From IMG/VR virus record IMGVR_UViG_3300048575_000161, positions 1 to 44,752 of that record: a stretch of 44,752 bases of DNA; one strand, given 5' to 3'. Shown in pieces: positions 7,465 through 31,177 of this stretch (within the stretch, counting starts at the first letter, position 1; every line of letters begins with the position of its first letter). Both the position numbers and the translations under genes were made by a program. A model generated the notes under the pieces. It did no database searches. It saw nothing but the letters and a program-made list of their open reading frames with translations, and was not told where the DNA came from. Source of the DNA: a virus. Its lineage: Duplodnaviria > Caudoviricetes.

Positions 7465-7501
7465 TGCTTATCCCTGACTACTTCCCCAGCATCAACATTC
7501 C

Positions 7502-7783
7502 TCAACATTTTTCGTGGCATTCCGCGTCATTTAACAGCGGAACAATTTGCATCATATCGCCGGAACCATCAGGGTCAGCCACCCATCTTTTGAAACTCTC
7601 GAGCGAATCCTCTTCTTTATCCAGCGCCCATTGCATCACGCGGGCCAGCGTCGCGCCGCTCGTATCGCGGCCATTCTCGAAGCGGTGTAGCGTGGGCGGC
7701 GTGAGCCCGATCTGTCGGGCGCCCTCGCGAACAGTGATACCATGCACCAGCCTCCAGCAGTGAACCAAATCAGCGAGCCGCAT
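7502..7783 (-). CDS. XRE-family HTH protein
   Basis: GITVREGARQIGLTPPTLHRFENG helix-turn-helix. Confidence 0.75.
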   Translation of the reverse strand: MRLADLVHCWRLVHGITVREGARQIGLTPPTLHRFENGRDTSGATLARVMQWALDKEEDSLESFKRWVADPDGSGDMMQIVPLLNDAECHEKC

Positions 7784-8961: not shown

Positions 8962-9173
8962 CCATTGCCTTCCATTTCGGGTATTTCCCGTTTCTGGGCA
9001 TAAAGAGTTTGGTAGGCCTCGGCCGCGGAGTGCCCCATCCCGACCAGGCAGCCGATCATGTAGCTGGTTTGGCAGGGCTCAAATCCATCAGACGCACAGG
9101 CCTCGCGCAGCTCGTTTAATTCAAAGCGCAAATGCTTGTGCCAAGCGGCTGCGCCTTCGATTTCAATCACCAT
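8958..9173 (-). CDS. Hypothetical protein
   Basis: 71-aa ORF tightly packed between neighbours. Confidence 0.6.
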   Translation of the reverse strand: MVIEIEGAAAWHKHLRFELNELREACASDGFEPCQTSYMIGCLVGMGHSAAEAYQTLYAQKREIPEMEGNG

Positions 9174-9176
9174 AAT

Positions 9177-10250
9177 TCAGCATGCCTCCTTGTTGAATAG
9201 CGGGCAGTCGCCCAGGATGCGTTCTCGCGCCATCGCCGCATACTTGGGGTTCAGCTCAAATCCTAAAAAATTACGGTCATTGCGCAAGCAGACAACACCC
9301 GTGGTGCCAGATCCGGCAAAGGGATCAAGCACCAGCCCGCCGGGCGGGCAACCGGCAAGTATGCAGGGCTCTATCAACGCCGTGGGGAACGTGGCAAAGT
9401 GGGCCTCGCGAAACGCCTCTGTGGCCACGGTCCACACGCTGCGCTTGTTGCGCGTCTCGGTGACGCAGCGTACGGCCGCCGAGAAAGATTCGTTTTGGCG
9501 TGGTTTTTTTGGTTTTGTTGCATGCGCAACGTCGCGATCCACGTGCATGCGCGAGTTCTTGCCGGGCGTTTTGCCCTTCTCTCTGCCGGCTCGGTGGAAT
9601 GACCCATGGCCACCCGGCCCGGTATCCCAGTTATCAGGCATTTTTCGCGCTTTGGGGTTCACGCCACTCCCTCGGCCGTGCGCGGTGCCGCTGACCGGCT
9701 CCTGCATGGCGTCAAAATCCCAATAATAACGGCGGCTCTTGGCGAGGATAAAAAGATACTCATGCGACTTGGTGCAGCGGTCCCGAGCAGGCTCCGGCGT
9801 GGGGTTCGATTTGAACCATACGATATCCTGGCGTAGCCACCAGCCGTCATCCTGCAACGCAAACGCCAGCCGCCACGGCATGCCCAGCAGGTCTTTAGGC
9901 TTCAGGCCCAGCGTGCGCCTGTCTCGCCCGGAACGGTGCGGGGCGGAACCGCCATGCTGCAAATTCAGTCTTTCGTCGCTTCCCCGCCCGTTACCTGGAT
10001 TGGTGCAATAGGCATCGCCCATGTTGACCCAGCACGTGCCGTGTTTTTTGAGCACGCGGCGCAGTTCGCGAAACAGACTCACCATCAGATCGAGATATTC
10101 CCACAGCGTGGGCTCCAGCCCCATCTGCCCCACCACGTTATAATCCCTCAGCCCCCAATAAGGCGGGCTGGTCACAATGCAATCGACCGACTCGGGCGGC
10201 AACGCGCGCGTTAGCTCCAGGGCATCGCCGATGCGAATTTCAAAACCCAT
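9177..10250 (-). CDS. DNA amino-methyltransferase (N4-C/N6-A, beta class)
   Basis: Catalytic TSPPY near the N-terminus, HFATFP, SAM-binding DPFAGSGT near the C-terminus; start 10250 preferred over track 10292. Confidence 0.93.
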   Translation of the reverse strand: MGFEIRIGDALELTRALPPESVDCIVTSPPYWGLRDYNVVGQMGLEPTLWEYLDLMVSLFRELRRVLKKHGTCWVNMGDAYCTNPGNGRGSDERLNLQHGGSAPHRSGRDRRTLGLKPKDLLGMPWRLAFALQDDGWWLRQDIVWFKSNPTPEPARDRCTKSHEYLFILAKSRRYYWDFDAMQEPVSGTAHGRGSGVNPKARKMPDNWDTGPGGHGSFHRAGREKGKTPGKNSRMHVDRDVAHATKPKKPRQNESFSAAVRCVTETRNKRSVWTVATEAFREAHFATFPTALIEPCILAGCPPGGLVLDPFAGSGTTGVVCLRNDRNFLGFELNPKYAAMARERILGDCPLFNKEAC

Positions 10251-10671
10251 AGCGGTCCATCCGATCCCGGGCGTTCTGTAGCTCCTGTTCATCGACCGAC
10301 CAAAGCCCCTGCGCCCCGCGCCACGGAATCGGAGTTTTGAAGGGCTTCACATTCTCAAGCACCCAACAGCAAGGCCCCATGATGAACGGCCGCTGGTCGG
10401 GATACCGCTTGATCGCCGCTCCCTCCTGCAACACGTCCACCAGGTCACAGGTGGCCAGCGCGGCCTTCAGCGGCAGCTTTTCGAGTGGTCCCAGGAACCG
10501 TTCAAAGAACTGTCGATCTTCATAAGCCAAGGCCCTAATCCACTTTCCAGACAACCCGGCATGAATCAGCAGCGGGCCGCGGTAGCTCGTAAACCAGGTG
10601 CGGTTTTCAATGCGCTTCGGCCCGTGCGTGATGGCGCTGGCATGCGGCTGGCAAACGGTTAAACCCTTCAT
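10240..10671 (-). CDS. ASCH domain protein
   Basis: LTVCQPHASAITHGPKRIENRTW..YRGPLLIHAG...RGAQGLW. Confidence 0.9.
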   Translation of the reverse strand: MKGLTVCQPHASAITHGPKRIENRTWFTSYRGPLLIHAGLSGKWIRALAYEDRQFFERFLGPLEKLPLKAALATCDLVDVLQEGAAIKRYPDQRPFIMGPCCWVLENVKPFKTPIPWRGAQGLWSVDEQELQNARDRMDRYGF

Positions 10672-12206
10672 CCTTCTTGTGCCTCGTGTTCATTGAAATC
10701 TTGTAGCGCAAACGCCGATGCGTACCAGGGGCCATCATCATCGGCCACGTACACCGGCACGGGCCGCCCGGCCCCCGCGAGATCGCCCACCAGTTCAGAG
10801 ATCGTCCGCCCGAAATTGTTGATGATAACACACGCCGAGAACCACGTTTGCATCCGCAGCCAAACCCCGTTCGGCCCAATTCCCTCACAGCGCGAACCGT
10901 CCAAATTAGCCTCAATGGCCTCGCCAAAGTCGGCGATCAACTGATCGCGGATACGAGGCCAGGCGCCGGCCACATTTTTGCGCTCGTCAGCATTCGGCTT
11001 GCGCGCTTCAACAACGCCGCTGCGCGTCGGTTTTTCATCGGCTCGATCTTGCGGCGGCGCCGGCCCGGCAAATCCACGCTTGCGCGTCACGGCCTCTTTT
11101 CGTCCCCGCAAAAGCTCGTCGTGTTTGGACGCCAGGCAGCCATGCAGCGCCCGCGCCGGATCGTCCACCTGCGACGGGTTGGCTTTGCACCAGTCGGCCA
11201 CCTGCAAAAGTTCCTGTTCGACGTTGATCAGTGGCCATGTTTTCTGCATACGCTGACGCCGCGCCGGCGTAATCGCCGCCAGCGCCGCATCAACGCGCGC
11301 CTCCCAGGCCTCGGCCACTTCATCGCCGGCCGCGTTGACGGCCACGATTCGCGCCGATGCTGGCTTGGAATTATCTTTCCCCCCGCCCGGCCCCGCCGTG
11401 TCCGCTTCGGCGGAATCCGCTGAGTTGTCCGCGCCAGCGGCCAGGTGGTCGGGGTGGTTGCGTGGTGGTTCCCCTTGACCGCCGAACGCCCCGGAACCCG
11501 TCGTGGCTGGCGCCGGGCGTTGCTGTGGTGGTGGTACGTGGTCCCGCAGGGCCGGACCGCCGCACGCGTTCGCGCCCGCGGCATCGGCCGCCTGGCGGGA
11601 CTGTCCCCCTTCGGGGGAACCAGAAGGGGGGGATAATAGGGGGGGAGAGATAGGGGGATTGGGGGAAAGAGAGGGGGAGAAAGAAGGGGGGGGAGGGGTC
11701 TCGCACGGCGTACCGACTTGCGAGCACGCCGTCACGCAGTTGGTGTACGCCGTATCCGGATAACGTGACGCCGTGCGCACTGCACTGTTTTTGTGCAAAT
11801 CGCCTGTTTCGGCCTCCGGCGGTGCGGCATTGACCGGCGACCGGCGGCTCGCGCCCGGGATCATGACCCCTTTCATGTCGATGATGCCCCCCTGCGTCTT
11901 GGCGGCGCGGCGGGCACCCACGGCGATATGCTGGGGCCATTCGCTCACTACCAATCGGTACTCGGCACACCGCACCAGCCACGAGCTGGCCACCAGGGCA
12001 TCAACCAGCCGCGCCGCATCATCCGGCGGCCAGCCGATCCACATGGCGACATCCTCATCGCGATAACGGCCGATGTCCCCGCGCGGCGTGTGCTTGTTCG
12101 CGAATAACCAGATTGATTCGAGCAGCCCGGCCGCGCCCCATTGGGGCAGGGCCAGGCTGTCGGCCAACATTCTGAATTCCGCGGTTGATTCTGTGCCTGG
12201 CTTCAT
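10668..12206 (-). CDS. Putative phage replication initiator (N-terminal winged HTH, central helical domain, C-terminal DnaA_N-like domain)
   Basis: N-terminal LA..L...AAGLLESIW...RLVDALV...W pattern of phage initiators; Pro/Ser linker; WPLINVEQEL..W.KANP domain; C-terminus resembles DnaA domain I. Confidence 0.65.
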   Translation of the reverse strand: MKPGTESTAEFRMLADSLALPQWGAAGLLESIWLFANKHTPRGDIGRYRDEDVAMWIGWPPDDAARLVDALVASSWLVRCAEYRLVVSEWPQHIAVGARRAAKTQGGIIDMKGVMIPGASRRSPVNAAPPEAETGDLHKNSAVRTASRYPDTAYTNCVTACSQVGTPCETPPPPSFSPSLSPNPPISPPLLSPPSGSPEGGQSRQAADAAGANACGGPALRDHVPPPQQRPAPATTGSGAFGGQGEPPRNHPDHLAAGADNSADSAEADTAGPGGGKDNSKPASARIVAVNAAGDEVAEAWEARVDAALAAITPARRQRMQKTWPLINVEQELLQVADWCKANPSQVDDPARALHGCLASKHDELLRGRKEAVTRKRGFAGPAPPQDRADEKPTRSGVVEARKPNADERKNVAGAWPRIRDQLIADFGEAIEANLDGSRCEGIGPNGVWLRMQTWFSACVIINNFGRTISELVGDLAGAGRPVPVYVADDDGPWYASAFALQDFNEHEAQEG

Positions 12207-12236
12207 GCCTCAGCCCCTTGCGTCTCGTGTTGTGCC

Positions 12237-13025
12237 TTATGACTGATACTCGCCGCAAACAACCTGGCTGCCCGTCGGCAGTTTTTCGGCCAGCAGCACG
12301 GCAATGGATCGCCGCGCGTCACGCAAGGCCCGCGACAGCCCGCGCGGCGTCAACGTCAACACCAGCGACGGCCTGCCGTCGTCCTTTTCGACATTGATCT
12401 CCAGCACGCATTGCAGCTTCTGCTTGCGCTCGTCGCATTGAAAAAACGGACCTTCGAATTCCCACTGGTTTTTCACGTCCGTGTTATTCGTGCCGCTCGA
12501 AATGCGCAGCTTCGACGATGAGCTGCCCGACACATTGCCCAGCGGGCTGACCTCCAGCATGTCCTGCCCGCTGCTCGACACATTGAGCTGCGAAATGGCC
12601 AGCAACAATTCAAGCGACAGGCAGCCATCCAGGTCACCCATCAGTAGCGAGAAGGCGGTTTTCACGTCCACGCCTTTTGCCAACTGCAGCAGCGCATTCA
12701 GTTCCGGGCTGATCTCTAGCGCGGTCTTGATGACATGCAGGGATTCATTAGGCTCCTGATATCGCGGCACAGCCACGATTTGCGTGGCACCGACAAAGAC
12801 CTGCGGAACTTCAGGCTGTTCGAGTTCTTTGGCTCGGACCAAAAAGTAATTGATTAAATCATCCAGCGTTTCAAGCCGGCGGGATCGCCGCGAAACATCT
12901 GTCCGTTTCAGCGTTTCGAGTTTACCGCCGCCGGTCACGATGAGGCGTTCCAGCTCGGTTTCCAGCAAGATGACCGGCCGGCGTCGGTCATCCAGGTATT
13001 GCAAGGCGTCTTGCGTGAGGCTCAT
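12237..13025 (-). CDS. Hypothetical early protein
   Basis: 262 aa; ATGA-coupled to the upstream gene; LETLDDLINY..VFV pattern as in common prophage two-gene pairs. Confidence 0.7.
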   Translation of the reverse strand: MSLTQDALQYLDDRRRPVILLETELERLIVTGGGKLETLKRTDVSRRSRRLETLDDLINYFLVRAKELEQPEVPQVFVGATQIVAVPRYQEPNESLHVIKTALEISPELNALLQLAKGVDVKTAFSLLMGDLDGCLSLELLLAISQLNVSSSGQDMLEVSPLGNVSGSSSSKLRISSGTNNTDVKNQWEFEGPFFQCDERKQKLQCVLEINVEKDDGRPSLVLTLTPRGLSRALRDARRSIAVLLAEKLPTGSQVVCGEYQS

Positions 13026-13808: not shown

Positions 13809-14047
13809 TCCTGCCCTCCAGAAGGCGCTACGGCCGTCATGGCGGCCTTCAGGCGCCGGGCACGGTGCGCATGCGGCCTGGGCGCTGTTTTGCGGCCTGC
13901 GGCCTTGCCGCGCTGATTCCCATGCCATCCCTTGCGCGTGGCAACCCGCCGTTCCACCGGCACCGGCCGGCAGGCGGCCTTGAAGCGCTGCCAGAAAATT
14001 TCGCGGGGTATTTTCGGGGCATCCTGATCGGATGATGTAAACGTCAT
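13805..14047 (-). CDS. Hypothetical protein
   Basis: ATGA overlap with the methyltransferase stop; GGAGG RBS. Confidence 0.5.
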   Translation of the reverse strand: MTFTSSDQDAPKIPREIFWQRFKAACRPVPVERRVATRKGWHGNQRGKAAGRKTAPRPHAHRARRLKAAMTAVAPSGGQE

Positions 14048-15273
14048 GCTGCCGCCTCCAATGCCATTTGGGGAAGATTCGCCCTTACCAGCGCTTCGGC
14101 CAGCGGTGGGCACACGCTGTTGCCGATCATCCTGACCGCGTCGCTCTTGTTGCTGGGCAGCCAGTAGTCGGCGGGGAACCCCTGCGCCAACGCCAGCTCG
14201 CGTGGCGAGAGCATGCGCAGGCCGATGTCCACAATCTGGTAATCAAGTCCCGCCACCGTCACCAGCCCCAGCCGGTCGCGAGTGGTAATCGTACGCAGTG
14301 GATCTTGTGCGCGCTGGCCCACGCCCTGCTTGTAATAGCTGATCAGGAACGCCCTAACCTCGGCGATGTGCTGCCCGCCGCCGGTAATCGTTGGCAACGG
14401 CTCGCGCAAATCCGCGCCGATATTGGTTCCGTAAAACTTGGTTAAGTGAGCTGCCACCAGGCTGTAATGGTGGATCGGCACGATGAACGGCTCGGCCGTC
14501 TCGATCACATATCGCCGCAGCCCCGCCGCGATCCGCCGCAGCGTGTTGTCGGCCAGCGGCCGCTGGCGCTCGAAAATGCTGGGGCAAGGAATGGTCCAAT
14601 CAATGCACTCGGCCGCCGTGCGCCACGGTTGCAACGCCGAACTAAACAGATCGGTCTGCACCGCCGGGCGCGCATGCGTCGGCTCCGGCCACACAATGGG
14701 GGCACCGTCGCAGCGCGCCACCACAAACAGCCGTTTGCGCGTGGTGGGAGCTCCATAATCCGCCGCCACCAGCTCGCGATGCTCTACCTGGTAACCCAGA
14801 TTACGCAACCTGGTGCGCCAGCTCTTAAACGTCACGCCCTTGCGCTCCTGATCGGGCCGTCCATCCGCCCCCAGTGGTCCCCACGTTACAAATTCCTCTA
14901 CATTTTCGAGCATGATTACATCGGGCCGCACATCCTTGGACCACCGGATCGCTTGCCACGCCAGCCCGCGAATGCCCTTTTCAACCGGGCGCCCCCCCTT
15001 GGCCTTGCTGAAGTGTTTGCAGTCCGGGCTCAGCCACAGCAACCCCACGCGCCGCCCGCGGCAGACCTCGCGCGGGGAGACATCATAAACGCTCTCACAC
15101 AGGTGCAGCGTGCCGGGATGATTGCGCGCATGCATGGCCAACGCCGTGGCATCATGGTTGACGGCCACATCAGGCGACCGCCCCAGCGCCAGCTCGATCC
15201 CCGTGCTGGCGCCGCCCCCACCCGCAAACAGATCGATGATCATGGGTTGTTGTTCCGCCACCATGCTCCCCAT
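14044..15273 (-). CDS. DNA (cytosine-5) methyltransferase
   Basis: DLFAGGGG, catalytic SPDCKHFS, ENVEEF, YGAPTTRKRLF, RMLSPRELALAQGFP, IGNSV. Confidence 0.95.
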   Translation of the reverse strand: MGSMVAEQQPMIIDLFAGGGGASTGIELALGRSPDVAVNHDATALAMHARNHPGTLHLCESVYDVSPREVCRGRRVGLLWLSPDCKHFSKAKGGRPVEKGIRGLAWQAIRWSKDVRPDVIMLENVEEFVTWGPLGADGRPDQERKGVTFKSWRTRLRNLGYQVEHRELVAADYGAPTTRKRLFVVARCDGAPIVWPEPTHARPAVQTDLFSSALQPWRTAAECIDWTIPCPSIFERQRPLADNTLRRIAAGLRRYVIETAEPFIVPIHHYSLVAAHLTKFYGTNIGADLREPLPTITGGGQHIAEVRAFLISYYKQGVGQRAQDPLRTITTRDRLGLVTVAGLDYQIVDIGLRMLSPRELALAQGFPADYWLPSNKSDAVRMIGNSVCPPLAEALVRANLPQMALEAAA

Positions 15274-17934: not shown

Positions 17935-18338
17935 GCGTTGGCCCCGTCTTCAGGTTCGGCCAGCAGCTTCAGCATGCCGGCGAACAGACAGGCCAATTCC
18001 TCCTCCATTTTCGAGGCCGCCAGATTATTGCGCGCGAAATCATTCAGCCCGTCGATGCTCTCGGTGCAATGTGCCTGCTGCCGCGAGCTGAACGATGCCA
18101 GACTCAAATCGGCAATCACTGCATCGCGCGCCCCGCGCGGCAGGCCGAGAAAGGCGTCGATCATGTCGTCAAACCGCTTATTCAGCTCGTGGCGCATGTC
18201 GATGCGCCGCCGCGCGGCCAGTGACAGCGCGCCGTCGACGGGCTTGGCCGTCCGCGCGTGAAATTCCTGCTGCCGCCGCTGGTTGGCCTCCTGCTGCGCC
18301 TCGATCTTGCGCTTCAGCATTTCTGTAATCTCACTCAC
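17931..18338 (-). CDS. Hypothetical protein
   Basis: 135 aa; GTG start overlapping the upstream stop; AAGGAG RBS. Confidence 0.65.
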   Translation of the reverse strand: MSEITEMLKRKIEAQQEANQRRQQEFHARTAKPVDGALSLAARRRIDMRHELNKRFDDMIDAFLGLPRGARDAVIADLSLASFSSRQQAHCTESIDGLNDFARNNLAASKMEEELACLFAGMLKLLAEPEDGANA

Positions 18339-19063
18339 GCGCGTGCTCCTTCCTGCATGCCCCTTTGTTTTTTGTGCGCATCCCTGAGTAGTCGATCATG
18401 CTTCGACGCGAGACAGCCAAATAGCGCACGCGTTATATCATCCACCTGATCGCGATTGGCCTTGATCCATGCCGCCGCCCGTTGAAGCTCATCATCCACG
18501 TTCAACAGCGGCCACTGTTTGCGCATCTTTTGGCGCCGTTCGGGAATGATCCCAGCCAACGCGACAGCAATGAGCGCATTCCAGTTCTCCTGCGGGTTCG
18601 GTTCCACTTCGGGTTTCAGGGCTAAACGTAAGGCGCGCAACTCGTCCCCAATTCGTTCCAGCGCGCACACAATGCCGTCCATCGTTTGGGCTTGTTCAAC
18701 CGGCGCCGATGCCTCCGCAGACGCCCCCTCACTGCGCAGATCGGCCTTGGCTTTTTCCAGCAGCTCCCGCCCGATCCGCTCATTTTCAATTCTGGCGGCG
18801 AGCTGCTCAGGCGATTCCTCCCGCGCCACACAGGCCTTCACCCTTCCGCATTTCAGGCAAGCGAAAGCGTCGCTTGCCGCCAGAAGCAACATCGTCGTCC
18901 CGCACTCGCATTTGGGCTGTTCAGGCAAAGCTTCGGGTTTGAAATCGGACATCAACCCGTGACAGATCGGGCACGCATATGGGTCGTCGTACGCATCGCG
19001 TTCGTCATCCTCGACCTCCCCGGCGACGGTTGCCCCACATGTGCATTGCATCATTTTGGCCAT
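18335..19063 (-). CDS. Double zinc-ribbon protein with a C-terminal copy of a replication-initiator domain
   Basis: CTCG..CPICHG and CECG..CLKCG; C-terminal 67 aa align at 42/67 identity with the ORF at 10668-12206; AAGGAG RBS. Confidence 0.75.
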   Translation of the reverse strand: MAKMMQCTCGATVAGEVEDDERDAYDDPYACPICHGLMSDFKPEALPEQPKCECGTTMLLLAASDAFACLKCGRVKACVAREESPEQLAARIENERIGRELLEKAKADLRSEGASAEASAPVEQAQTMDGIVCALERIGDELRALRLALKPEVEPNPQENWNALIAVALAGIIPERRQKMRKQWPLLNVDDELQRAAAWIKANRDQVDDITRALFGCLASKHDRLLRDAHKKQRGMQEGARA

Positions 19064-19485: not shown

Positions 19486-19803
19486 TTGTTTACCGCTCTC
19501 CCCGTACTGATGAGGGAGGGACGGCAACGGCGTGGATGGACTCAACGGCAAGCAGCGAAAATATTGGGCGTCTCTCAGAAGACGATTTCAACGCTGGAAA
19601 ATACAGGGGAAGCTGGTCAGGTTTTGCTGAAAAAATGCGCTGAACAATACGGGCTTGACATGGCTGATATCCTTGCGACGAAAATTAAAAATAGTCGTGA
19701 TGGGTTTTCAGAAACCGAACAAGCCTTGATTCAGGCCGCGCGAGCAAAAGACCTGCGAAAATCCCTGAAATTGCTAGAGAAAATCATCTACGAACCGAAA
19801 TAG
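19486..19803 (+). CDS. XRE-family phage repressor (cI-like, no S24 peptidase domain)
   Basis: GRQRRGWTQRQAAKILGVSQKTISTLEN HTH; divergent from cro; TTG start with GGGGGTG RBS. Confidence 0.8.
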   Translation: MFTALPVLMREGRQRRGWTQRQAAKILGVSQKTISTLENTGEAGQVLLKKCAEQYGLDMADILATKIKNSRDGFSETEQALIQAARAKDLRKSLKLLEKIIYEPK

Positions 19804-20047: not shown

Positions 20048-20929
20048 ATGCTTTGCACGATGGAATTATGGCTGGCTTGGCTTGAGAATGCCCACAGGGC
20101 GCAAGGGACTGCTGTTTGGTATCGTAACAAGGTCACTGCATTTATTGAGTTTGTAGCGTGCCATCCCGAAGGGATCACGCCGCGCACCGTGGATTTATTT
20201 CTCCGAACCGGTTTGGTCTGCGGAAATGAAGGACGTGCCGGTTATTGGCGGGCAATTCGCGCCTTTGTAAACTGGGCGTCCGATACGCGACGGGGATATT
20301 TGCCGGCCAACCTTCTGGGTGACTATGACCCGCATTTGCCGCGTTCAAAACGGATCATCGCTCCCCTGAAGGAAGATGTGCTGGCAATCATTAAAAAAAT
20401 GCCTCGGGGAACAATGGCCGAGCGTCGTGACCGTTGTTTTATTCATTTTTTGTATTACACGGGAGCCCGCGCCGGAGAGGCGCTTGCCGTGCGAATAGAC
20501 GATATTGATCTGCACAGAAAGTATGCTCGCATTTATCAGGAAAAGAACCATGAACACCGCATTGCGCCTTTGGTGGACGCTCTTCTTCCTGAGCTTTTTT
20601 CATGGATGGGACACTGCAAAGGAAGGTGGTTGTTTCCGTCATGCATGCGCCGCAAGGTGAATCCGAATTGTCACTTGAGTCTTTCAGGAATTGAAGATCG
20701 TTGGACTATTTTCAAGAAATCAATAGGGATAGAGAACCAGAAATTCAACTTGCACTTATTGCGACACGCCTTTGGAACGCACGCACGCGAGGCCGGTCTT
20801 GATCTGATAGACATCAAGGATTTGATGGGGCACGCTACACTTGCCGCCACACAAATCTATGCCGTCGCAAGTCCTGAACATCTCAGGAAAAACGCTAACA
20901 AGATATGGCCTGAACCAATTCCGGCTTGA
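20048..20929 (+). CDS. int: Tyrosine integrase/recombinase (compact, Xer-like)
   Basis: Catalytic residues in YTGAR, EKNH, HLLRH, MGH, TQIY; 293 aa with no obvious arm-binding domain. Confidence 0.93.
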   Translation: MLCTMELWLAWLENAHRAQGTAVWYRNKVTAFIEFVACHPEGITPRTVDLFLRTGLVCGNEGRAGYWRAIRAFVNWASDTRRGYLPANLLGDYDPHLPRSKRIIAPLKEDVLAIIKKMPRGTMAERRDRCFIHFLYYTGARAGEALAVRIDDIDLHRKYARIYQEKNHEHRIAPLVDALLPELFSWMGHCKGRWLFPSCMRRKVNPNCHLSLSGIEDRWTIFKKSIGIENQKFNLHLLRHAFGTHAREAGLDLIDIKDLMGHATLAATQIYAVASPEHLRKNANKIWPEPIPA

Positions 20930-20998
20930 AAAATAATAAAGCTGTGGTTTGCGGGTGACGATAAATTAAAAGAGGGAAATTCCCTTGGAGGGCACCAG

Positions 20999-21613
20999 AT
21001 GAGTCGTGTAGTGCTGTTTATACTGGCTATCTTATCAGGATTTAACATTCAAGCCGCCACAACAGAGGCCATACCTTTGCCTTTGCCAGAGAAGGGGATT
21101 GTAATCAACGACGCCGATATTCGAGCACTTTCCCCTATTCCAGCGGATAACAACGCGCTCGTGACAATTCCTGAGTCGCTTTTACAGCCACAGTCAAAGC
21201 CTCGCTCCGTCGGCTTGGGACGCACTGGTATCTCGCGCGAGGAATTGTTTGCGGCCATGGATCGCGAATTTGGACCTCCCAAACCAATCCGAAGAACCAC
21301 CAATTCGCTTCAGGCCACGAGCAACATAAGCGTAAAAATAGATGCCATTTATGACGACGGTAAACCAGAGAAGATAATCGCACCAAAACGCTTTGATTTC
21401 TCGAGCCTTTGCTACTTTTTTTTCTCTGCCCGCGCCCCCGAAAAGGCGATTTCTGGGGGCATTCATATGGCGATTAAATTCTGCGTCTTTGTCCTGATCT
21501 CAATGATTCTGCTTTCTCCGTTTTGGGCTGCATTCATCGTACTGAAAAAAGCTCGCGCAAAGCGGTCTAATCCTCCAGCCCCAACCCCCGCCGCTGGCGC
21601 TCCAGCGCCTTGA
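20999..21613 (+). CDS. Exported membrane-anchored protein, candidate superinfection-exclusion factor
   Basis: Signal-like MSRVVLFILAILSGFNIQA-A; C-terminal TM FCVFVLISMILLSPFWAAFIVL followed by KKARAKR; residues 38-94 copy residues 8-64 of the 2612-aa protein; GGAGG RBS. Confidence 0.75.
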   Translation: MSRVVLFILAILSGFNIQAATTEAIPLPLPEKGIVINDADIRALSPIPADNNALVTIPESLLQPQSKPRSVGLGRTGISREELFAAMDREFGPPKPIRRTTNSLQATSNISVKIDAIYDDGKPEKIIAPKRFDFSSLCYFFFSARAPEKAISGGIHMAIKFCVFVLISMILLSPFWAAFIVLKKARAKRSNPPAPTPAAGAPAP

Positions 21614-24600
21614 GTTCCTTCACCGGCACACGCTTCGGATCGATCTGCCGCGCCCGCTCAAGCGCACTTCCCGCCGTGCCCGTGCGGCTCCATAGACTGT
21701 ACGGCTCATAGCGAGCGCGAGCGAGCGCAACCGCATTGGCGCGGCTCCAGCCGGCCGCATCCAGGATCGGCACGATTTCATGGTCCGGTACGCCCTGCCT
21801 GCGCGCGGCGCGCACTGTGTCATAGGTTTCACGCCACAGCTTCATCCGACGCCCTTCCTGGTACAGATAATCGTCCAGCACGCTTTGCGGGCTGATGGGG
21901 CTCATGCTGGTCAGGGGATTGGTGAACTGTGTGGTGACATCGTGACTGGCCCGTATGAAATTACGCATTTTGAATTGCAGCGCCTGCCGGTAATCAATGT
22001 TCGTCACACGCGCGCCGGTGAGTTCGGCCGTGATCTCTACAGCGGGATCAAGCTTCTGGCCGTAAGGCGTCGTTTGCCCACGCAGGGCGGGGATAATCTT
22101 GCGAAAAATGCGCTCTACTGTGCCGGGCAGCAAGGCCATGCCCACATATTTCCCGATGGATGCGGCTTGGCGGGTCGGGCTGTCTTCTGGATTGTAAACC
22201 CGTTGACCTGTTTGGGTTTTGTTGCTGCGCACGTCCATGAGTCGCGAGAAGAAAAGCTGTTCGCTAACCCATGGGTCTAGTATTTCCTTGGCGGCATTTT
22301 TCACATGAGATGCATCAAACGTCCAGGCTGCCATCATCAATTCGGAGAACGAATCAGTGAAAGTGTTGTAAGGGTTGTAGCTGCTCAGATCGAACGCGCT
22401 GGCGCGGCCATCTTTCAGATTTCGGCTCAGCATGATCATGGTGCTGCTGCGGCTCCAGTCGGGCAGGAAGCGACGGAAATCTTTATCGTCATCAGGCGAG
22501 AGGCCCAGCATCAGGCGACTGGCAAGAGCCAGAACCGCCCCCGAGCCCAGGGCCAGCGACAATCCGGCCAGGCGTTCAGCGCCAGCAAGCCGCTGGGCCT
22601 TGTTGTCACTGCGCAGATCCAGCGCGGCATAACGGGCTGAATGCCAAAGAGTGCGTAATGCCTCATAATTGAAGGCGACGAACGGCCCAAAAAAAGGCTG
22701 CCGGCGGGCCTGCTGAAAGAACTTCGACACTCTTGAATAAGTGGGGTAAGTGTTGAGAACGCGCGTGACGGCCTCGCGCTCTACCTGCTCTGTTGTCCAA
22801 TCGGGATGTACGCGCCGCTGGCGCGCCGCTTCGTTTTCAAAGCCCACGATTTTCCCCAGGCTGTCACTGGCTTCATACAAGGCAATAGGGGCATTCAACG
22901 CAGGACGCCACACGCGTAGAAATTTCCTGATCCGAGTCTTCGCCGGAGCGTATTGTTGATTGAGGCGCAAGCCTGCATCGCTCATTACATTGCGGAGTTC
23001 TTCAGCAATAGCGGAATTGTGCAGCAACCCCAGTTCTACATAGTGATAGAGGCGTTCGCGCTGCTCGGAAGAGCGCATTCGCCCCCAATCGGTCAGCACG
23101 GCACGCAGCCCAGCGCCATAACGCGACAAGTTGAAATGGCCGCTGAGCGCGTGAAAGAAGGGTTGACCCAGTAGGTTGCGGGATTGCGTCATCACGCTGC
23201 CCACTGTCTTCATGGTTTTAGCAAAAGCGTTCACAGCCATTAATCCGGTCCAAAACCAGTGATCGACTTCTTTGCTTTTGTCCAGCGCCTCAAATGCTTC
23301 CACAATTTCAGGCGCCGTGAACAGGCCATTGAGCGGGGCAAGCACTTGACTACCTTCGGCGGCGATCTTGGCATTGAACCCAATTGGCGCATCGCCAGGT
23401 TCAAAAAGATAGACGCCCATGCCGGCATTACGTACTTTGCGCAGAAACGTTTCATTGGCCAGCAGCATTGATTGCTTGGTTATCGTTTTGGCGGCATTAA
23501 CCTCGGCGTCTTCGTACTCGCCCATGACAGCCCGGATTTCGGGGGCGACATTCGTGCGCCGCATGAAGATACTGAGGTCTTTTTGCCCGATCTTGAGCGC
23601 GGGCGGGGGACTTGAACGTTGATCAGGCTTTAGCGCGCGTTCGAACAGGAAGTTGAGCAGATGGCTTTCGGCCTGCTGCCAGGTAATTTCTTCTTCCGCT
23701 TTTGCAATCTCCCGACGAATTGCATCCTCACTAGCATAATCAAACATGTCGCGCGCCGGCATGATGGCAGGCTCGCCGCCGGCCTGCGCCGCTCCGGATT
23801 CCTGTTCCTTGCGCCATGCCTCTTCAGCGGCATCCAGACGGCCAAACGCCCTGTTTCGAATCATGTTATCGCGCGTCCATGCGATAGCAGAATCGTAGGC
23901 CTGCCTCGGGATGACTTTAAGCCACTTTTCACCCTCATCGCTGATCCGATAACTCCGGTGCACGTAGGAGCCCAGCCGCTTTTCAAGGGTTGCCTTGAGC
24001 GGACCATCGACCATCCCGGAATCGAGCAACTGTACGCTCAATTCGTCGATTCTGGCGCGCAGCGCTATCACGGGGGCCTGGAGTCGTAACGGCAGCTTGG
24101 CAATATGCCGGCCGCCATGCAGCGCACGATTCAGTGTATTCCGCACATCCGCAGGCATGTTGAATTTGCTTTTATATTCAACATTGATGGCGCGGTCTAA
24201 ATCAGCTTCCAAGTGTTTTAAGCGGGTCTGTTCCGCTCCGATGGACGCCTGCCGAAGCTCATTCAGCTCGAACACCTCTTGGGGCAAATCGCCGCGCGCC
24301 CTGAATTTTGATTTGGCCCAATCGATAAGACCGCGTTCGCGAATAGCCGCGGCCTTTTCCCGCAGATTTTTTGGTTTTAGTGTCTCTTGTTCATTGTCGC
24401 TGGCTTCGCGCCGGTCCGCCATGAAGCGCAAATCCTCGCCGGTCGGGATCGCCTCGCCTTCGCCGGTTTTCTCGGAGGCATTGACCCCCAGCATGGTTTG
24501 CAGGATACTATGAACTGGAAGCCCGCCCGGGGGGGATTGTTCAGCCTTCGGGCTAGCACCTGCCTGTGACGGAATCCCGGACGGGCTTTCGACCTCCATC

Positions 24601-27600
24601 AATTCATGATCATAGAATAGCCGCCCGCCGGTATCCTCGCGCACCACGAGGCCGACATGGTAGTCGGTGCCGCCGACCTTGAGTGGCGCCGCAAAAACGT
24701 GCCGGTCCAGCCACGGCCCGCTTGTCCTGTGGTCGGTAGTGATCAACACTGCGCGTTTCAGCAGCTCGCCGATGCCGGCGATGGCCTGAATTTTGACCGG
24801 CCCGGAACCATGGGCCAGCGCGCTGCGCACGCCGCTGGGGCGCACTTCGATCTTCCAGCCGGTTTCCTGATTGGTCACACTGCGCGGCAATTGCTTGGCC
24901 GCCCAAGTGCGCGCCTTGGCACGCAGCTCTTTCATGTTGAGCGGTTCATCAAAAGCGTCGATCTCGTGGCCGCTAATGATCACTGGAAGCGTGACATCGT
25001 AGCGTCCTTTTATTTCGCGCAATCGTTCTTCAGAGGGCATGAAGCGCAGGAAATCAGGCTGCGCCACCTTGGCTGTCGGCTGAGGGCGGGCAGACCGGGC
25101 CGCCGGTTTTTCCGGCGCCATCTCTCCCGTGAACATGTCCGGAACCCCCGGCGGGGCCTCGGCCGGACCTACGCGGTCCAGCACGCTTTGCGGCGTTCCC
25201 GCCATGTCCAGCGTCGAACGGAACAGCTCGCCTTGCTGTGGGGGCTCCCTGCGCGGTTCTGTGGCCTGTTTTTCCTCGGGCAGCAAGCGCAACCCCAGCT
25301 CATCGGCCCAGCCCTGCAATACTTGGCTGCGTTCCAGCGGCAGCATGCCCCCCTGGTTGTTGAGCGCCGACTCGGCCAGTGCGGCGTAACCCTTCAGCCG
25401 TTCGCGCAGCTTGGCGGGGCTGGTAAGCACCGGCAGCAGAATGCGCGCCGCAGTGCGATCATCCGCGGCGAGCGGCGTCACCCAGTCATTAGTCGCCTCG
25501 AAATCCTCCAGGTTGGTGGTGCCGGTCCGCCGAGCAGCTTCGGCAAGCTGGTAGACGATGCCCGCCAGGTCATAAGCGGGATCAAGGCCCTGTTCCAGCA
25601 GCCTCTTGACCTGTACCAATGGCGTCAGGCTCGCCGACAGGCTGCGTTGCAGCGCCGGCCACTGCTGAATCAGGTTCAGCGCTTCGCGCTCGTTGGGTCC
25701 TTCGAATACTTTGGCCATTAGCGCCTGCTCGACCAGCCGCCGCCCTGCTTCGGTCAGCCGGTCGCCATCCGCTGTGTGGCGCACATATTTGCCGGAATTC
25801 TGGTTTGTGATCGCCCCGGCCGAACGCAAGGCGTCAATGAACCGATCCACCTTGTCGGCATCATTCAGCACATCCGCAATTGTCTGGTCCCCGTCCAGGT
25901 TGATGCCCTGCAGGAGCACCCGCTCGTCAAGATTGCGCGCCAGGTTGATCGCTTCGCTGATCTCATCATATTCCAGCGTCCCCTTGCGGTTGGATTCACG
26001 CGCGAACAGCTCCCATTCCTGCGGCGTCAAATCCATTTCGCGCACCAGCATCATCGGCGTATCGGATTTGACCGCCTCGGGCGTCAGGCCGAATTCTCCG
26101 GCCCGCTCGGCCAGGTGGGTGCGATACTGCTGATATTGCTGCGGGTGCAGCTCAAGCGCGCGCTGAATCATCATCGTGCGCCCGTTGCCCCCCAGCGCGA
26201 TCCACTGCGAGCGCCGCTCAGGGTTGCGCACCACCATCGGCGGGCCGCCGGCCGGGCCGACCTCGTTGCTGACCATGTTGTAGGGATTGAGCCGCGCCGC
26301 GCCGCTGATGACCTTGACCTGTTCCTCTTTGTCGCGTGCGTAGTCACGCGGCTGCACCTGCTGGGGATATTCGGGGCGTGGTGCAAAACTTTGCGCATTA
26401 TGGCTGGCCACCACGGCATTGACGGGGACCAAGCGATAATGGACGTTGAAGCGCTGCTCGATGCCGGGGTGATAATAAACCCAGGGGCGGCCGACGGTGG
26501 ATTCGCGCTCGCCCCTGGTTGTCGTCGCCGTATCGCCCCCGATACGCCGCCGATCAGCCGTGCGCCGCTGGCCTTCGGCGACCAGTTTGGCCAGCAACGC
26601 GCGCGTTTTCAGCAGTCCCGCTTCATTCATCTGCTTTTCAACGTCGCGTGGATTCAGGCGGTCGCGCAGCGCCCTGTCGATCCGGTCAATCAAATCCATC
26701 ACGCGCCACGCCAGCCGGTTGAAGACGGTCGGGTTCGCGTCACGCACCGCCCGCCAGAACTTCGGGTTCGCAATGTTTTGCGCCAACTGGTCGGCCAGCA
26801 CTTCTTCGCGCAATACGTGCTCTGGCTGGTTGGCGGCGATGGGGTGACGCTGGCGGTAATCGCGCACCCACCGTGCTACATCCATCGACTGGCCCAGCGC
26901 TTCCCAATACTGGTTCAACTCCGCGCTGCCCTGCAAATCGCCCACCAGCGCATGCCCGGCTTCATGCGCCACCACACGCAACACGGGGTGCTCGGTGGCG
27001 GTATTCCAGTAGATAAAATCAGGGTTGCTATTGGCATAGACGCCGGCCACGGCCGGGGCATACTCGCCGCCGCGGATCGGCACCAGCGTGCGCCCGAACA
27101 CTTTACGCGCAACCAGCTCCGCCAGTCGCGTGCGGGTCGATTTGAGCACCAGCGGGCGTTCATCCAGCGTAAACGGTGGCGTCGTCGTCGTTTCGCCTGT
27201 GGTACGCGGGCGACCGGCCGCGCTCCCTTCACTTAGCTCGCGTTGCGCCGCGACTTCGCCAGTCTGTTGGCCCGCGAGGGCGTTATTGAGCCAGTCTACC
27301 GCCTCTTGGCGCGTGGAGCGCTCGGCGGGGCTATAGGGGCGGCGATAGGCCATCGTCGGCGCTGTTTCGGCCGCTTGAACGGATTCGATCGGGGCCGCCG
27401 TGGGCAGAGCCGGGGTTTGTTTCGACGGGGTGACCTCCGGCTCTGCATCAGGCGCAGGAGCGGCAGCTACTTCTTGCCGCCCCCCTTGGGTTTGCAACGT
27501 GCCATTGTTTGGGGCTCCTTTCTGCGGGATGACATCGGCCGCCGGTGCCGCCGGTATTTCCGGCGCGGCCTGCATTTCCTGTTTAGCCAACCCATAAATC

Positions 27601-29405
27601 TTCTCTTCGAGCTTGATGACTTTGTTGCCCAATTCTTCGAGATCATAAAGTTGCGGCTGAAGTTCGGCAGGGATGGTCAGCGCAAGCGCCTGTGCCCGTT
27701 CCGTGGCACCGGGAATCTCATTTAATGAGTCCCTGACTTGCTGCTGATAGGCAGCGGCGCCATTGGGACCGCCGAATAGGGTTTCGGCCAAGTTGCGCCA
27801 CTGGGCACGGCGCTGAGCCAGCACGCTGCGCAGATTCTTAATCTTATTGGAGACATCGCGCTCGCTTGATTTTGCCGTTGGGGTTGGCTCGGTAATTTCC
27901 GAATAGTCACTCTCAGGAGAATTCACAACAGTTTCGCGAGAGATCGCCATCGCGGGGGATGGCGCCTGCTCCGAGCGTTGCGCGGACAATACTTCCGTAG
28001 GGGAAACAGCAGCCTGCCGCGCCATCTGAAGTTTTGTTTGCTTAAGTTCATCCGACCCGGCCATGGTCTCGGCCAATTTCCGTTCGGCGGCCGTCATTTT
28101 CATTTTCCCGGCACTCTCGCCGGCCATGGCGCCGCCGGCCAGACCACCAGCAAGGAAGGCCAGTGTTCCAGCCTCAGCCACCCGCTGGGGCATTCGGTCC
28201 ATGCCGTGGGGGTCTCCGGCGGCCGTGTTGAATAGCCCGCCTGCCAGTTCCTGGCCTATTTCAGCCGGCATTTCAGCAATTCCGCCACGTCCGAACCGGG
28301 ACGCGACGCGTCGCGTTAATCCTGCATCCGCACCACCAGCAAGTTTGGCCCCTTCCCCCATGATGCCCTCGAATGGCGCCAGTTCCATCGCGGCGGCCGT
28401 GCCGCCACGCAATGCCAGCATCAGGCCGGCACGTTTTTTTGCCTCCCCTTCCGCAACGCCCTGATCAATCAGGGTGGAAACCAGTTGTTCATAATCCCCA
28501 CCGCCCTCCTGAATCGCTGTCGGCGCCGCGAAACCGATTACCTCGGCCGCCTTGCCCGCGCTTTGCAGCGCGCGCGACAGTCCCATGGACAATGCCATCT
28601 GTGGGATTTGTTCGCCCAGACTAGATTGTGCCCAACGCAAGGCATTGGTCAACCGGTCGCCGTCCGCCAACTGTTTTGCCTCCGATCCAAAGGGGCTAAC
28701 CACGCTTTCATCTCGTGCCGCCAGATCGCTGGATTGAATTTCGCGTCCCGAACGGGCAATCGAACGACCGGCCAACTCCATTGGGTTATCCGGGTAAGGG
28801 GCCAGCTCAGTGCGTGCATAACGGGGAATGCTGAAATCGAACTCGGGCAACGAGGCATCAGTCAGCACGATTTCGCCACGCTGTGCCGCATCGGCCGCGC
28901 GCAGTCGTTGGGCCGCATTAATGGTCTGAGTGGCCTGCTCGGCCTGCAATCGTTCACGCGCCGGCGCGCGCATGACATTCTCAATTAATCCGGCCGTGGC
29001 GTAGGGCAACGCCTGCAGGGCCCCACCGGCACTCTCCACAATCTGGCCGAGGCCGCGCATGGCTCCGCGCGGAATGTCGGTCCACGCGCTGCGGCTGGGG
29101 CTGGGAACTTCGGATGGGCGCACCGGCGCCTCGATCACAGGAGGTGGGGGCGCATTCACGGATGCGGGCGGCAGCAGGATGTTGGGATCGACGGCCCGGT
29201 CAACACGATTTTCGGGAGAGCCGAATTCCTGATCTAAAGCCGCAAATAATTCCTCGCGCGTGATGCCGGTGCGCCCTAGATCTTTTTGCCGGGGCTTTGG
29301 CTGAGGCCGTAAGAGTGACTCAGGGATCGTCACAAGTGCATTGTTATCCGCCGGGATCGGGGGCAAAGCCAAGATATCGGCGTCAGAAAGTCGAATGCCG
29401 GGCAT
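21567..29405 (-). CDS. Large polyvalent protein / probable internal virion (ejection) protein
   Basis: 2612 aa, last gene of the virion operon; zincin-like HEAGH..EEVLAD, DdrB-ParB-like QPRDY..GPPMV..GGNGRTM, LPD3-like VTNQETGWKI..FYDHEL. Confidence 0.8.
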   Translation of the reverse strand: MPGIRLSDADILALPPIPADNNALVTIPESLLRPQPKPRQKDLGRTGITREELFAALDQEFGSPENRVDRAVDPNILLPPASVNAPPPPVIEAPVRPSEVPSPSRSAWTDIPRGAMRGLGQIVESAGGALQALPYATAGLIENVMRAPARERLQAEQATQTINAAQRLRAADAAQRGEIVLTDASLPEFDFSIPRYARTELAPYPDNPMELAGRSIARSGREIQSSDLAARDESVVSPFGSEAKQLADGDRLTNALRWAQSSLGEQIPQMALSMGLSRALQSAGKAAEVIGFAAPTAIQEGGGDYEQLVSTLIDQGVAEGEAKKRAGLMLALRGGTAAAMELAPFEGIMGEGAKLAGGADAGLTRRVASRFGRGGIAEMPAEIGQELAGGLFNTAAGDPHGMDRMPQRVAEAGTLAFLAGGLAGGAMAGESAGKMKMTAAERKLAETMAGSDELKQTKLQMARQAAVSPTEVLSAQRSEQAPSPAMAISRETVVNSPESDYSEITEPTPTAKSSERDVSNKIKNLRSVLAQRRAQWRNLAETLFGGPNGAAAYQQQVRDSLNEIPGATERAQALALTIPAELQPQLYDLEELGNKVIKLEEKIYGLAKQEMQAAPEIPAAPAADVIPQKGAPNNGTLQTQGGRQEVAAAPAPDAEPEVTPSKQTPALPTAAPIESVQAAETAPTMAYRRPYSPAERSTRQEAVDWLNNALAGQQTGEVAAQRELSEGSAAGRPRTTGETTTTPPFTLDERPLVLKSTRTRLAELVARKVFGRTLVPIRGGEYAPAVAGVYANSNPDFIYWNTATEHPVLRVVAHEAGHALVGDLQGSAELNQYWEALGQSMDVARWVRDYRQRHPIAANQPEHVLREEVLADQLAQNIANPKFWRAVRDANPTVFNRLAWRVMDLIDRIDRALRDRLNPRDVEKQMNEAGLLKTRALLAKLVAEGQRRTADRRRIGGDTATTTRGERESTVGRPWVYYHPGIEQRFNVHYRLVPVNAVVASHNAQSFAPRPEYPQQVQPRDYARDKEEQVKVISGAARLNPYNMVSNEVGPAGGPPMVVRNPERRSQWIALGGNGRTMMIQRALELHPQQYQQYRTHLAERAGEFGLTPEAVKSDTPMMLVREMDLTPQEWELFARESNRKGTLEYDEISEAINLARNLDERVLLQGINLDGDQTIADVLNDADKVDRFIDALRSAGAITNQNSGKYVRHTADGDRLTEAGRRLVEQALMAKVFEGPNEREALNLIQQWPALQRSLSASLTPLVQVKRLLEQGLDPAYDLAGIVYQLAEAARRTGTTNLEDFEATNDWVTPLAADDRTAARILLPVLTSPAKLRERLKGYAALAESALNNQGGMLPLERSQVLQGWADELGLRLLPEEKQATEPRREPPQQGELFRSTLDMAGTPQSVLDRVGPAEAPPGVPDMFTGEMAPEKPAARSARPQPTAKVAQPDFLRFMPSEERLREIKGRYDVTLPVIISGHEIDAFDEPLNMKELRAKARTWAAKQLPRSVTNQETGWKIEVRPSGVRSALAHGSGPVKIQAIAGIGELLKRAVLITTDHRTSGPWLDRHVFAAPLKVGGTDYHVGLVVREDTGGRLFYDHELMEVESPSGIPSQAGASPKAEQSPPGGLPVHSILQTMLGVNASEKTGEGEAIPTGEDLRFMADRREASDNEQETLKPKNLREKAAAIRERGLIDWAKSKFRARGDLPQEVFELNELRQASIGAEQTRLKHLEADLDRAINVEYKSKFNMPADVRNTLNRALHGGRHIAKLPLRLQAPVIALRARIDELSVQLLDSGMVDGPLKATLEKRLGSYVHRSYRISDEGEKWLKVIPRQAYDSAIAWTRDNMIRNRAFGRLDAAEEAWRKEQESGAAQAGGEPAIMPARDMFDYASEDAIRREIAKAEEEITWQQAESHLLNFLFERALKPDQRSSPPPALKIGQKDLSIFMRRTNVAPEIRAVMGEYEDAEVNAAKTITKQSMLLANETFLRKVRNAGMGVYLFEPGDAPIGFNAKIAAEGSQVLAPLNGLFTAPEIVEAFEALDKSKEVDHWFWTGLMAVNAFAKTMKTVGSVMTQSRNLLGQPFFHALSGHFNLSRYGAGLRAVLTDWGRMRSSEQRERLYHYVELGLLHNSAIAEELRNVMSDAGLRLNQQYAPAKTRIRKFLRVWRPALNAPIALYEASDSLGKIVGFENEAARQRRVHPDWTTEQVEREAVTRVLNTYPTYSRVSKFFQQARRQPFFGPFVAFNYEALRTLWHSARYAALDLRSDNKAQRLAGAERLAGLSLALGSGAVLALASRLMLGLSPDDDKDFRRFLPDWSRSSTMIMLSRNLKDGRASAFDLSSYNPYNTFTDSFSELMMAAWTFDASHVKNAAKEILDPWVSEQLFFSRLMDVRSNKTQTGQRVYNPEDSPTRQAASIGKYVGMALLPGTVERIFRKIIPALRGQTTPYGQKLDPAVEITAELTGARVTNIDYRQALQFKMRNFIRASHDVTTQFTNPLTSMSPISPQSVLDDYLYQEGRRMKLWRETYDTVRAARRQGVPDHEIVPILDAAGWSRANAVALARARYEPYSLWSRTGTAGSALERARQIDPKRVPVKELKALERQRRGLGLED

Positions 29406-29416: not shown

Positions 29417-30592
29417 CTAACGTTCGGGGATGCCCAGCCCTTTACGCACCATGCGCTCTACGGTCTGACTGGGGGTATCGGGGTAGCGCCGCAACGCTTC
29501 TTCAAGGATGGCCTGTTCGTCGTCCCATAGCGCGGCAGGAGGCTGATAGGCGTCGCGGCGCAATTCATTGGCATTGCGCGCCGTGTCTATCGCTTCCAGC
29601 GCTTGGGCATATTCCGGACTACGTTTCCACTTGGATACGCGTTGCCGATAATCAGGACTGTCCAAGGTTCCGTCGGATGCCAGCGCCTCTTTGTCCATGC
29701 GCTCCTGTTGACTGGCCATCCAAGCCTTTTTCTCGCGCGCCAGACTGTTCGACGCAGTGACCGACGTATCGAATTGGCGTTGTCCCTCGCGTTTGCGAGC
29801 CTGCAAATCTCGCTTATTGCCTTTGGCCGCCTGTTCGATCATTTTTTCCTGCAACGCGCGATGTTTGGCTTCATCCACCCAGCGAATGGCCTGTTCAGCA
29901 TCGTCGGGCGTCGGCAGAGGTTCAATCGGCATGCCAGTCTGCTCACGCTTTTGCGCCTCGATCAGCGCCTTGCGCGCCACGTCTTCGCGCTGGCGCAAAT
30001 TGGCCGCCCCCTGCAGCATCTGTTGCGCGCGACCCGCCTGCTGATTCAGCATCTCACCCAGTCTATTCAACTCTCGTTCCTGCCGGTTCGAAAGCTGCCC
30101 AGCGCCTGCAAGAAAATCATAGCGGGCTTTTGCTTTGCTCAAAGGGCTGAAGGGATCATCGGGATTAGCCAGCCGTTGCAGGCGCTTTTCGGTGGCGCGA
30201 TCCAATTCATTGGCGAGGCGTTCACTTTGCGCCTGTCGAAACTGATCCCGGGCCTGTGCCGTATCGGCCTGCAGCCGCTGTCCTACCAGCGCACGTTCTG
30301 TTTGATCAGCCTCCGCCGACCGCCTTGCATGTGAAACATCCCATGCCACGGGATCGAACACTTTGGGAGCACTTGCCGCCTCAACCAATTGCAGGCTGTC
30401 GGTGTTGCCGCCCAGGAACGCTTCGGCGTTGTTGCCCGGGTAGGTGTCGAGAGCACGCGCCCATGGCTCATTCGGATCGGCAGGCATCGGTAGAGGGCCG
30501 TCATAAATGGAGCTGCCAGCGACGGGAGCAACAAATTGCTGTCCCGGAATTACAGGGGCGCGCAGTTGAGCGATGGTTGAACCGAACGGCAT
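29417..30592 (-). CDS. Putative internal virion/ejection protein
   Basis: 391 aa, Ala/Gln/Arg-rich and helical; position before the giant gene; GGAGGTG RBS. Confidence 0.6.
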   Translation of the reverse strand: MPFGSTIAQLRAPVIPGQQFVAPVAGSSIYDGPLPMPADPNEPWARALDTYPGNNAEAFLGGNTDSLQLVEAASAPKVFDPVAWDVSHARRSAEADQTERALVGQRLQADTAQARDQFRQAQSERLANELDRATEKRLQRLANPDDPFSPLSKAKARYDFLAGAGQLSNRQERELNRLGEMLNQQAGRAQQMLQGAANLRQREDVARKALIEAQKREQTGMPIEPLPTPDDAEQAIRWVDEAKHRALQEKMIEQAAKGNKRDLQARKREGQRQFDTSVTASNSLAREKKAWMASQQERMDKEALASDGTLDSPDYRQRVSKWKRSPEYAQALEAIDTARNANELRRDAYQPPAALWDDEQAILEEALRRYPDTPSQTVERMVRKGLGIPER

Positions 30593-30622: not shown

Positions 30623-31177
30623 CTAATAACGAAAGTTCCGATACCTATAGCGAGCCAAAAGCGATGTATTGGGAAGTTGTGTTTCAAGGGGTGTCTGCGC
30701 CCGCTGCGCCGCCAGCGCGGCCTGTTGCGCCTGCTTTTGCAGGTTAAGCTGCTGCTGCTGAATCGATTGATTACTGCGGAGCTGCTCAACATTCATCAGC
30801 AGATTGGCCTTATTCGTCGCCTGCTCGGCATTTGCCTGGCGCCCCTGAAGCTGCGCGTCAAGCAGTGCCGACGCACTGCGCGCCGCCGCGCCGCCGGCCG
30901 CCTGGTTGGCCAGGAAGCTGTACATCGGGCTGGTGGCGCCGCCCAGCCGCGCCGCCGTTTGCGCATTGGCGGTGTTGGCGGCCGTCTCATTTTGCCCGCG
31001 CAGTTTGGTGGCCCAGCGCAGCCAGTCATTGTCGCTGTAAAGCTGGCCGGGCACGCTCTGCACGGCGCTGTTGAGCGCCGCACTTTCCGCGCTGGTGTCG
31101 GTGTTTTGCTTGCGGAGCTTGGAAGCGTCATAAAAGATGTTGGACGCCCCGCGCATTTGAACGGCTGCCATGATCAC
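30623..31177 (-). CDS. Putative small ejection protein
   Basis: 184 aa, Ala/Gln/Asn-rich; first of three genes of increasing size. Confidence 0.55.
   Translation of the reverse strand: MIMAAVQMRGASNIFYDASKLRKQNTDTSAESAALNSAVQSVPGQLYSDNDWLRWATKLRGQNETAANTANAQTAARLGGATSPMYSFLANQAAGGAAARSASALLDAQLQGRQANAEQATNKANLLMNVEQLRSNQSIQQQQLNLQKQAQQAALAAQRAQTPLETQLPNTSLLARYRYRNFRY

Follow-up and report, generated by a model that had tools for sequence, protein, structure and literature searches.

SieA of phage P22 is the closest described counterpart of the protein considered here. It blocks DNA injection via the ejection proteins, and the block is saturable (PMC10883804). The P22 ejection proteins gp16 and gp20 function only when both derive from one phage, the C-terminus of gp20 being essential, and the way in which entry-exclusion proteins recognize the ejection machinery is still open, even for P22 (PMC10883804). 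Large polyvalent proteins are a second point of reference: their domains have been mentioned as possibly preventing superinfection (PMC5512222), and the polyvalent giant of phi24B is abundant in virions and has been proposed to be ejected (10.64898/2026.04.10.717836). Here, we describe a window of 44,752 nucleotides, the record IMGVR_UViG_3300048575_000161 of a virus of the class Caudoviricetes, in which a gene for a protein of 204 amino acids (aa; 20999..21613, plus strand) carries a copy of the N-terminal head of the phage's own giant protein of 2612 aa (21567..29405, minus strand). From the sequence and from analogy with other phages, we consider it fairly probable that the 204-aa protein is a periplasmic decoy which competes for the C-terminal end of the 391-aa protein encoded directly upstream of the giant, and thereby provides type-specific superinfection exclusion.

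The copy spans residues 33–94 of the 204-aa protein (21095..21280, plus strand) and corresponds to residues 3–64 of the giant (29214..29399, minus strand), a putative docking peptide. An earlier note on this DNA had placed the segment at residues 38–94 and 8–64, respectively. The gapless alignment over this core (21110..21280 in the small gene) stands, with 46 of 57 residues (81%) and 73% of nucleotides identical, but the likeness begins earlier, at residue 33 of the small protein and residue 3 of the giant (G-I), so that nearly the whole giant head has been copied. Our recount agrees with the earlier figures for identity and for codons, 24 of the 46 identical residues being encoded differently, and the differences fall on the three codon positions in numbers of 10, 6 and 30. 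The accompanying claim that the peptide rather than the DNA is conserved is also borne out: Nei-Gojobori rates of nonsynonymous (dN) and synonymous (dS) substitution between the copies are 0.14 and 1.82, a ratio of 0.077, which is not near 1 (Fisher p 8e-12). The two copies match in BLASTP with an E-value of 1e-27, and the segment alignment scores 247, with none of 300 shuffles scoring above 72. The copy is located ~8 kb from its template, beyond the far side of the giant gene, on the opposite strand and in an island of low guanine-cytosine (GC) content. Its codon use is more island-like (+11.0 bits, versus +0.1 for the template and a maximum of +7.5 in 44 windows of the giant gene, as scored with a small training set), while the shift towards A/T in synonymous differences falls short of significance (14 versus 7, p 0.19). 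Among 1.84 billion representatives the segment is confined to the 204-aa protein and the giant, and it has no relative above shuffle level among 222 other giant N-termini.

The architecture of the 204-aa protein is that of a predicted exported, membrane-anchored protein. Its ATG is preceded by GGAGG, and residues 1–19 (20999..21055, plus strand) resemble a signal peptide without a lipobox cysteine, with a hydropathy peak of 1.83 at residues 4–22. The stronger hydrophobic stretch, at residues ~151–181, includes a predicted transmembrane helix at ~157–181 (21467..21541, plus strand; hydropathy up to 2.49) and is followed by the basic tail KKARAKR. A single-sequence AlphaFold2 model of low confidence (mean predicted local distance difference test score, pLDDT, of 57) has helices at residues 3–14 and 151–190, the latter with pLDDT 72–87, whereas the middle of the protein is mostly disordered except for a short helix at 80–91. 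The whole protein contains two cysteines. The position of the segment between a signal-like N-terminus and a C-terminal hydrophobic helix with a basic tail, as proposed earlier, is thus recovered at the level of hydropathy and a low-confidence model, which predicts that the copied segment faces the periplasm on an inner-membrane anchor. Also as proposed, the gene follows the integrase gene and converges on that of the giant, the 3′ ends of the two open reading frames (ORFs) having 47 bases in common.

The 204-aa protein belongs to no family in Pfam, PHROGs, NCBIfam or PADLOC, the PADLOC 2023 defence-system profiles yielding no family for any of the three proteins searched. It matches only itself and the giant among the 1.84 billion representatives; no relatives were found in viral contigs, in a search of 5.8 billion clusters or in phage records, and the ESM Atlas gave no usable match. 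A third match, P0115, covers only residues 126–181 at 24% identity and was read as a hydrophobic-repeat match. Residues 20–37 and 95–152 were compared with the 222 giant N-termini for additional foreign motifs, and no match rose above shuffles.

The giant combines a ddrB-like ParB domain (aa 984–1123; 26037..26456, minus strand; PF18763, E 9.8e-11) with an LPD3 domain (aa 1490–1598; 24612..24938, minus strand; PF18798, E 1.9e-20) and matches the virion structural protein family phrog_22602 (E 9e-37). Directly upstream are the genes for the 391-aa protein (29417..30592, minus strand) and a 184-aa protein (30623..31177, minus strand). All three products are devoid of cysteine, in comparison with four cysteines in the portal, three in the capsid and 16 in a 1497-aa protein; the giants that N4 and DEV eject are stated to be cysteine-free as well (PMC11445570). 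From position and cysteine content, the three genes are likely ejection genes, with the giant as an ejected virion protein, the 391-aa protein as a periplasm-spanning and the 184-aa protein as a small ejection protein.

We propose that, during construction of the entry channel, the giant's head would act as a docking peptide and bind the 391-aa protein at its C-terminal end. A lysogen would probably make the 204-aa protein, anchored in the inner membrane with the copy facing the periplasm, where the copy could occupy the docking site on the channel protein of an incoming virion. The giant would then not be recruited, and the DNA of a phage of the same type would not follow.

The choice of partner comes from a comparison of 25 loci, of which 19, those whose motif type occurs more than once, could be scored. 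When the upstream proteins are compared by their final 38 residues, the nearest neighbour is of the same motif type in 19/19 cases, versus 0/19 for the protein body and ~2 expected. By analogy, these results point to the upstream ejection protein, and specifically to its C-terminal end, as the likely partner of the decoy; in this phage that protein is the one of 391 aa. In the latter, residues 353–386 (29435..29536, minus strand) are modelled by AlphaFold2 as a helical hairpin (pLDDT ~87) that by eye resembles the helical class of other upstream C-termini and is predicted to bind the copied segment. For N4, the N-terminal domain of the giant has been modelled as following the tunnel protein (PMC13434306). 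A PxPADxN stretch common to the 204-aa protein and the 391-aa N-terminus was considered as well; its score of 29 lies within other chance matches. Nor could the giant head be assigned to the P22 gp16-type N-terminal module: a profile of six gp16-like heads gives it an E-value of 3.9, and the 204-aa protein is not in the best 30 rows. This module does occur at a different locus (L009), where both the upstream protein (4431–6068) and the giant (6077–12511) open with a gp16-like N-terminal module.

Copies of giant N-terminal motifs were sought in other phages. A single-sequence locus search with the giant C-terminus returned no loci, and an alignment-based search was needed. With residues 1700–2612 as query, 113 proteins were retrieved, 34 of which were aligned with the query into a profile that fetched at least 186 loci (at least 80 viral, 26 genomic and at least 80 metagenomic). 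In a short-motif scan, convincing copies were recognized in three loci besides the window. In L166, a gene in the same downstream convergent position encodes an unrelated scaffold that matches the locus's own giant (0/5000 shuffles); the gene is missing from the sister locus L013. In the other two, L017 and L091, the copy is carried by members of an exported four-cysteine (four-Cys) family with sub-threshold likeness to NF041602. An alignment of this family recovered 48 viral loci, of which 16 were dropped: in nine the retrieved DNA contained no giant, in two the giant head or the tail was not usable, and in five only part of the small gene was present. After addition of L132 and removal of three duplicates, 30 pairs remained.

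In these 30 pairs, the four-Cys tail scores on average 40.9 against the head of its own giant, versus 21.5 ± 1.5 when permuted, and none of 100,000 permutations reached as high. The own giant ranks first in 16 pairs, most of the others being outscored by giants of the same motif type. The last motif of the tail is of the own giant's type in 28/30 pairs; of the remaining two, L205 is a miss of the pattern and L212 a true mismatch. Because the 30 loci are related, a group of eight provides cleaner evidence: their 151-residue scaffolds are 91–97% identical and bear six types of tail, each matching the giant of its own locus. In 8/30 tails, a motif of another type stands ahead of the cognate one, a pattern more in keeping with defence than with self-help. 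The earlier proposal of a decoy is thus partly supported, in that copies of own-giant motifs co-vary on other exported scaffolds, some of which keep motifs of other types. Since the 204-aa protein has no relatives, this co-variation is seen on those scaffolds and not in its own family. Similarly, a paired segment in relatives, which the earlier note had proposed to look for, is found as co-variation in the four-Cys set, but most related loci have no detectable copy.

The four-Cys family extends to a cultured phage. Phage LKA5 (L238, ~5950–6300) has an unannotated four-Cys gene with the tail KKPWEEY, and its giant LKA5_059.1 opens with KPWEEF twice; nine further Pseudomonas phage records match the family. 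In L132, exported proteins are encoded on both sides of the giant (1482–2021 and 14139–14501), both ending in its LFDDL motif. In L050 (= L212; 12924–13637), the four-Cys tail IDRFLDAK resembles the giant head of L101, which has IDDFL twice, and not that of its own giant; this tail is possibly a decoy against another type. Loci L233–L237 hold short, tail-less fragments of the four-Cys gene, some of them paired.

Whether temperate podoviruses with giant ejected proteins share one general scheme is, in our estimate, about an even chance. The giant N-terminal peptide and the upstream C-terminal domain would form a swappable lock and key; prophages would fuse copied keys to various unrelated exported proteins, older keys sometimes being kept in a row as a memory of other types, and the 204-aa gene would encode a nearly full copy, tethered to the membrane, of a private key.

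Several observations weigh against the decoy interpretation. Neither the 204-aa nor the 391-aa protein has a homologue, the latter also matching only itself in homologue searches, and the support from other phages is therefore by analogy. The C-terminus of the 391-aa protein does not significantly resemble those of other upstream proteins (best score 36). Motif and upstream C-terminus are only weakly correlated when whole matrices are compared (rho 0.11; 193/5000 permutations), and, being close in DNA, they could be exchanged together as a single cassette. In DEV, the giant binds the tunnel protein through its C-terminal domain (PMC11445570). Motif types were set by eye after the data had been viewed, on loci that are related, and the tail of L212 mismatches its own giant. 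The trait is patchy, most related loci having no detectable copy: among the matches listed, no long copy lies beside any of 132 closed giants (best score 61, versus 244 here). In the scan for short motifs, 77 of 101 non-redundant loci had candidates, 180 ORFs in all, and among the matches listed 7 of these scored best against the giant of their own locus, with 1.9 expected; of the seven, the window and the three loci described above are convincing, and L053, L025 and L112 look like chance. Finally, a low dN/dS would also be expected if the head of a sister phage's giant had recently been captured, and the genome holds another internal paralogous segment.

Some of these facts can be read differently. 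The shared peptide might bind a host envelope protein needed by the incoming giant, with the 204-aa protein occupying that host site. This would still be exclusion; it accounts just as well for the presence of the copy, for its conservation and for its location in the envelope, and occlusion of a host factor has been offered as an alternative for SieA (PMC10883804). Nevertheless, we regard it as unlikely, since the motif type switches together with the C-terminus of a phage protein in all 19 scored loci, and again among near-identical scaffolds, and a fixed host target would not favour such switching.

Somewhat less plausible still is that the copy benefits the phage itself in the lytic cycle or once induced, and not in lysogen defence, for instance by capturing or guiding the ejection proteins of released progeny. 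The protein that the copy matches is the phage's own, induction raises sieA expression (PMC10883804), and a promoter scan at chance level gives no sign of expression in the lysogen. On the other hand, the gene stands behind repressor and integrase genes and antisense to the late genes, and most related phages are without a detectable copy, which implies that it is not needed for assembly. Foreign-type motifs, present in 8/30 four-Cys tails, would be useless for self-help, and a periplasmic peptide would presumably miss ejection proteins during assembly in the cytoplasm. The least probable explanation is that the segment is a passenger, which a moron acquired through recent recombination with the giant gene of a sister phage: a ratio from two copies is silent on which branch selection acted, so that a low value may be inherited from the past as a giant head, the databases searched hold no relatives for comparison, the synonymous A/T shift is not significant and the genome has a second internal duplication, yet the copy is in frame, spans just the giant's head, is flanked by a signal-like peptide and a membrane helix, has island-like codon use and recurs in the same arrangement on at least two other scaffolds.

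The window comprises the whole virus record, which has end repeats: positions 1–127 and 44626–44752 are identical (127 bases), probably an assembly overlap of a circular genome. Nearly all genes are on the minus strand. The plus-strand island (46–54% GC, versus 61% for the genome) contains, in order, a helix-turn-helix repressor-like protein (19486..19803; PF01381), a tyrosine integrase (20048..20929; PF00589, E 2.7e-29; phrog_1) and the 204-aa gene. Matches to the integrase are only 25–28% identical, and no host is indicated by them. The late block on the minus strand includes matches to SU10-type capsid and adaptor proteins and to a terminase, and a weak match to a portal, followed by the 184-, 391- and 2612-aa genes as the last ones. 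Promoter and terminator scans are at shuffle level (5 versus 3.0 and 3 versus 3.6, respectively). A terminator-like site at 20973–20985 (minus) is on the late strand, directly beyond the 204-aa gene, in a scan whose terminator count is at chance level; late transcripts might read antisense through that gene. A DUF5131 gene, an N6/N4 methyltransferase and a C5 methyltransferase are found at 7783–10292 and 14044–15273. The second internal paralogous pair comprises a 242-aa ORF (18335–19063, minus) and a 512-aa replication-initiator-like protein (10668–12206, minus), which have a C-terminal segment in common (18396–18584 versus 11119–11307; 67% DNA identity; BLASTP E 7e-26). The 242-aa ORF could be a truncated regulator or a mimic of the replication protein.

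Compared with known systems, the 204-aa gene is laid out like sieA of P22: each lies immediately beyond the last ejection gene, converges on it and encodes a small membrane protein, a predicted one in the case of the 204-aa product. The parallel with sieA made in the earlier note therefore applies to gene position, but not to the copy, no copy of gp16, gp20 or gp7 having been found inside SieA. The two proteins are not homologous either: their alignment scores 28, 329/500 shuffles scoring as high, and PHROGs, Pfam and NCBIfam gave no match for the 204-aa protein. SieA has three hydrophobic stretches, whereas one anchor and a signal-like peptide are predicted for the 204-aa protein. Moreover, SieA excludes phages with diverged ejection proteins (PMC10883804), whereas a self-copy predicts type specificity. 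Like the large polyvalent proteins described previously (PMC5512222) and gp47 of phi24B (10.64898/2026.04.10.717836), the giant has ddrB-ParB and LPD3 domains, here in one chain and above the cut-off, and its gene stands last among the virion genes, with portal, adaptor, capsid and terminase matches on the same strand. The available parts of these two accounts describe no N-terminal docking peptide and no exported copy.

The prophage members of the VF_A0006-like four-Cys proteins (NF041602, matched below the curated cut-off) likewise end in the N-terminal motif of their own giant. By contrast, they have another scaffold, a C-terminal motif of 7–12 residues and no membrane anchor that we could see, and the 204-aa protein shows no likeness to them (no NF041602 match). 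No published function was found for the family, and among the papers listed in our literature searches we found no description of exclusion by a self-copied ejection peptide. New here are the ~60-residue length of the copy, its membrane-anchored scaffold and a copied head without known relative. If the decoy interpretation is correct, the decoy is a readable copy of its target, so that specificity would be predictable from sequence and testable by one peptide swap; it would also point to the contact that hands giant ejected proteins through the entry channel and would explain the fast diversification of ejection-gene ends. Envelope mimicry as a prophage defence, diversified by phage-phage competition, has a precedent in the FimU mimics of F10-like Pseudomonas phages (PMC12952977). 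In that case a host pilus subunit is copied and adsorption is blocked, whereas the 204-aa protein copies a virion protein of the phage itself and is predicted to block at a step after adsorption.

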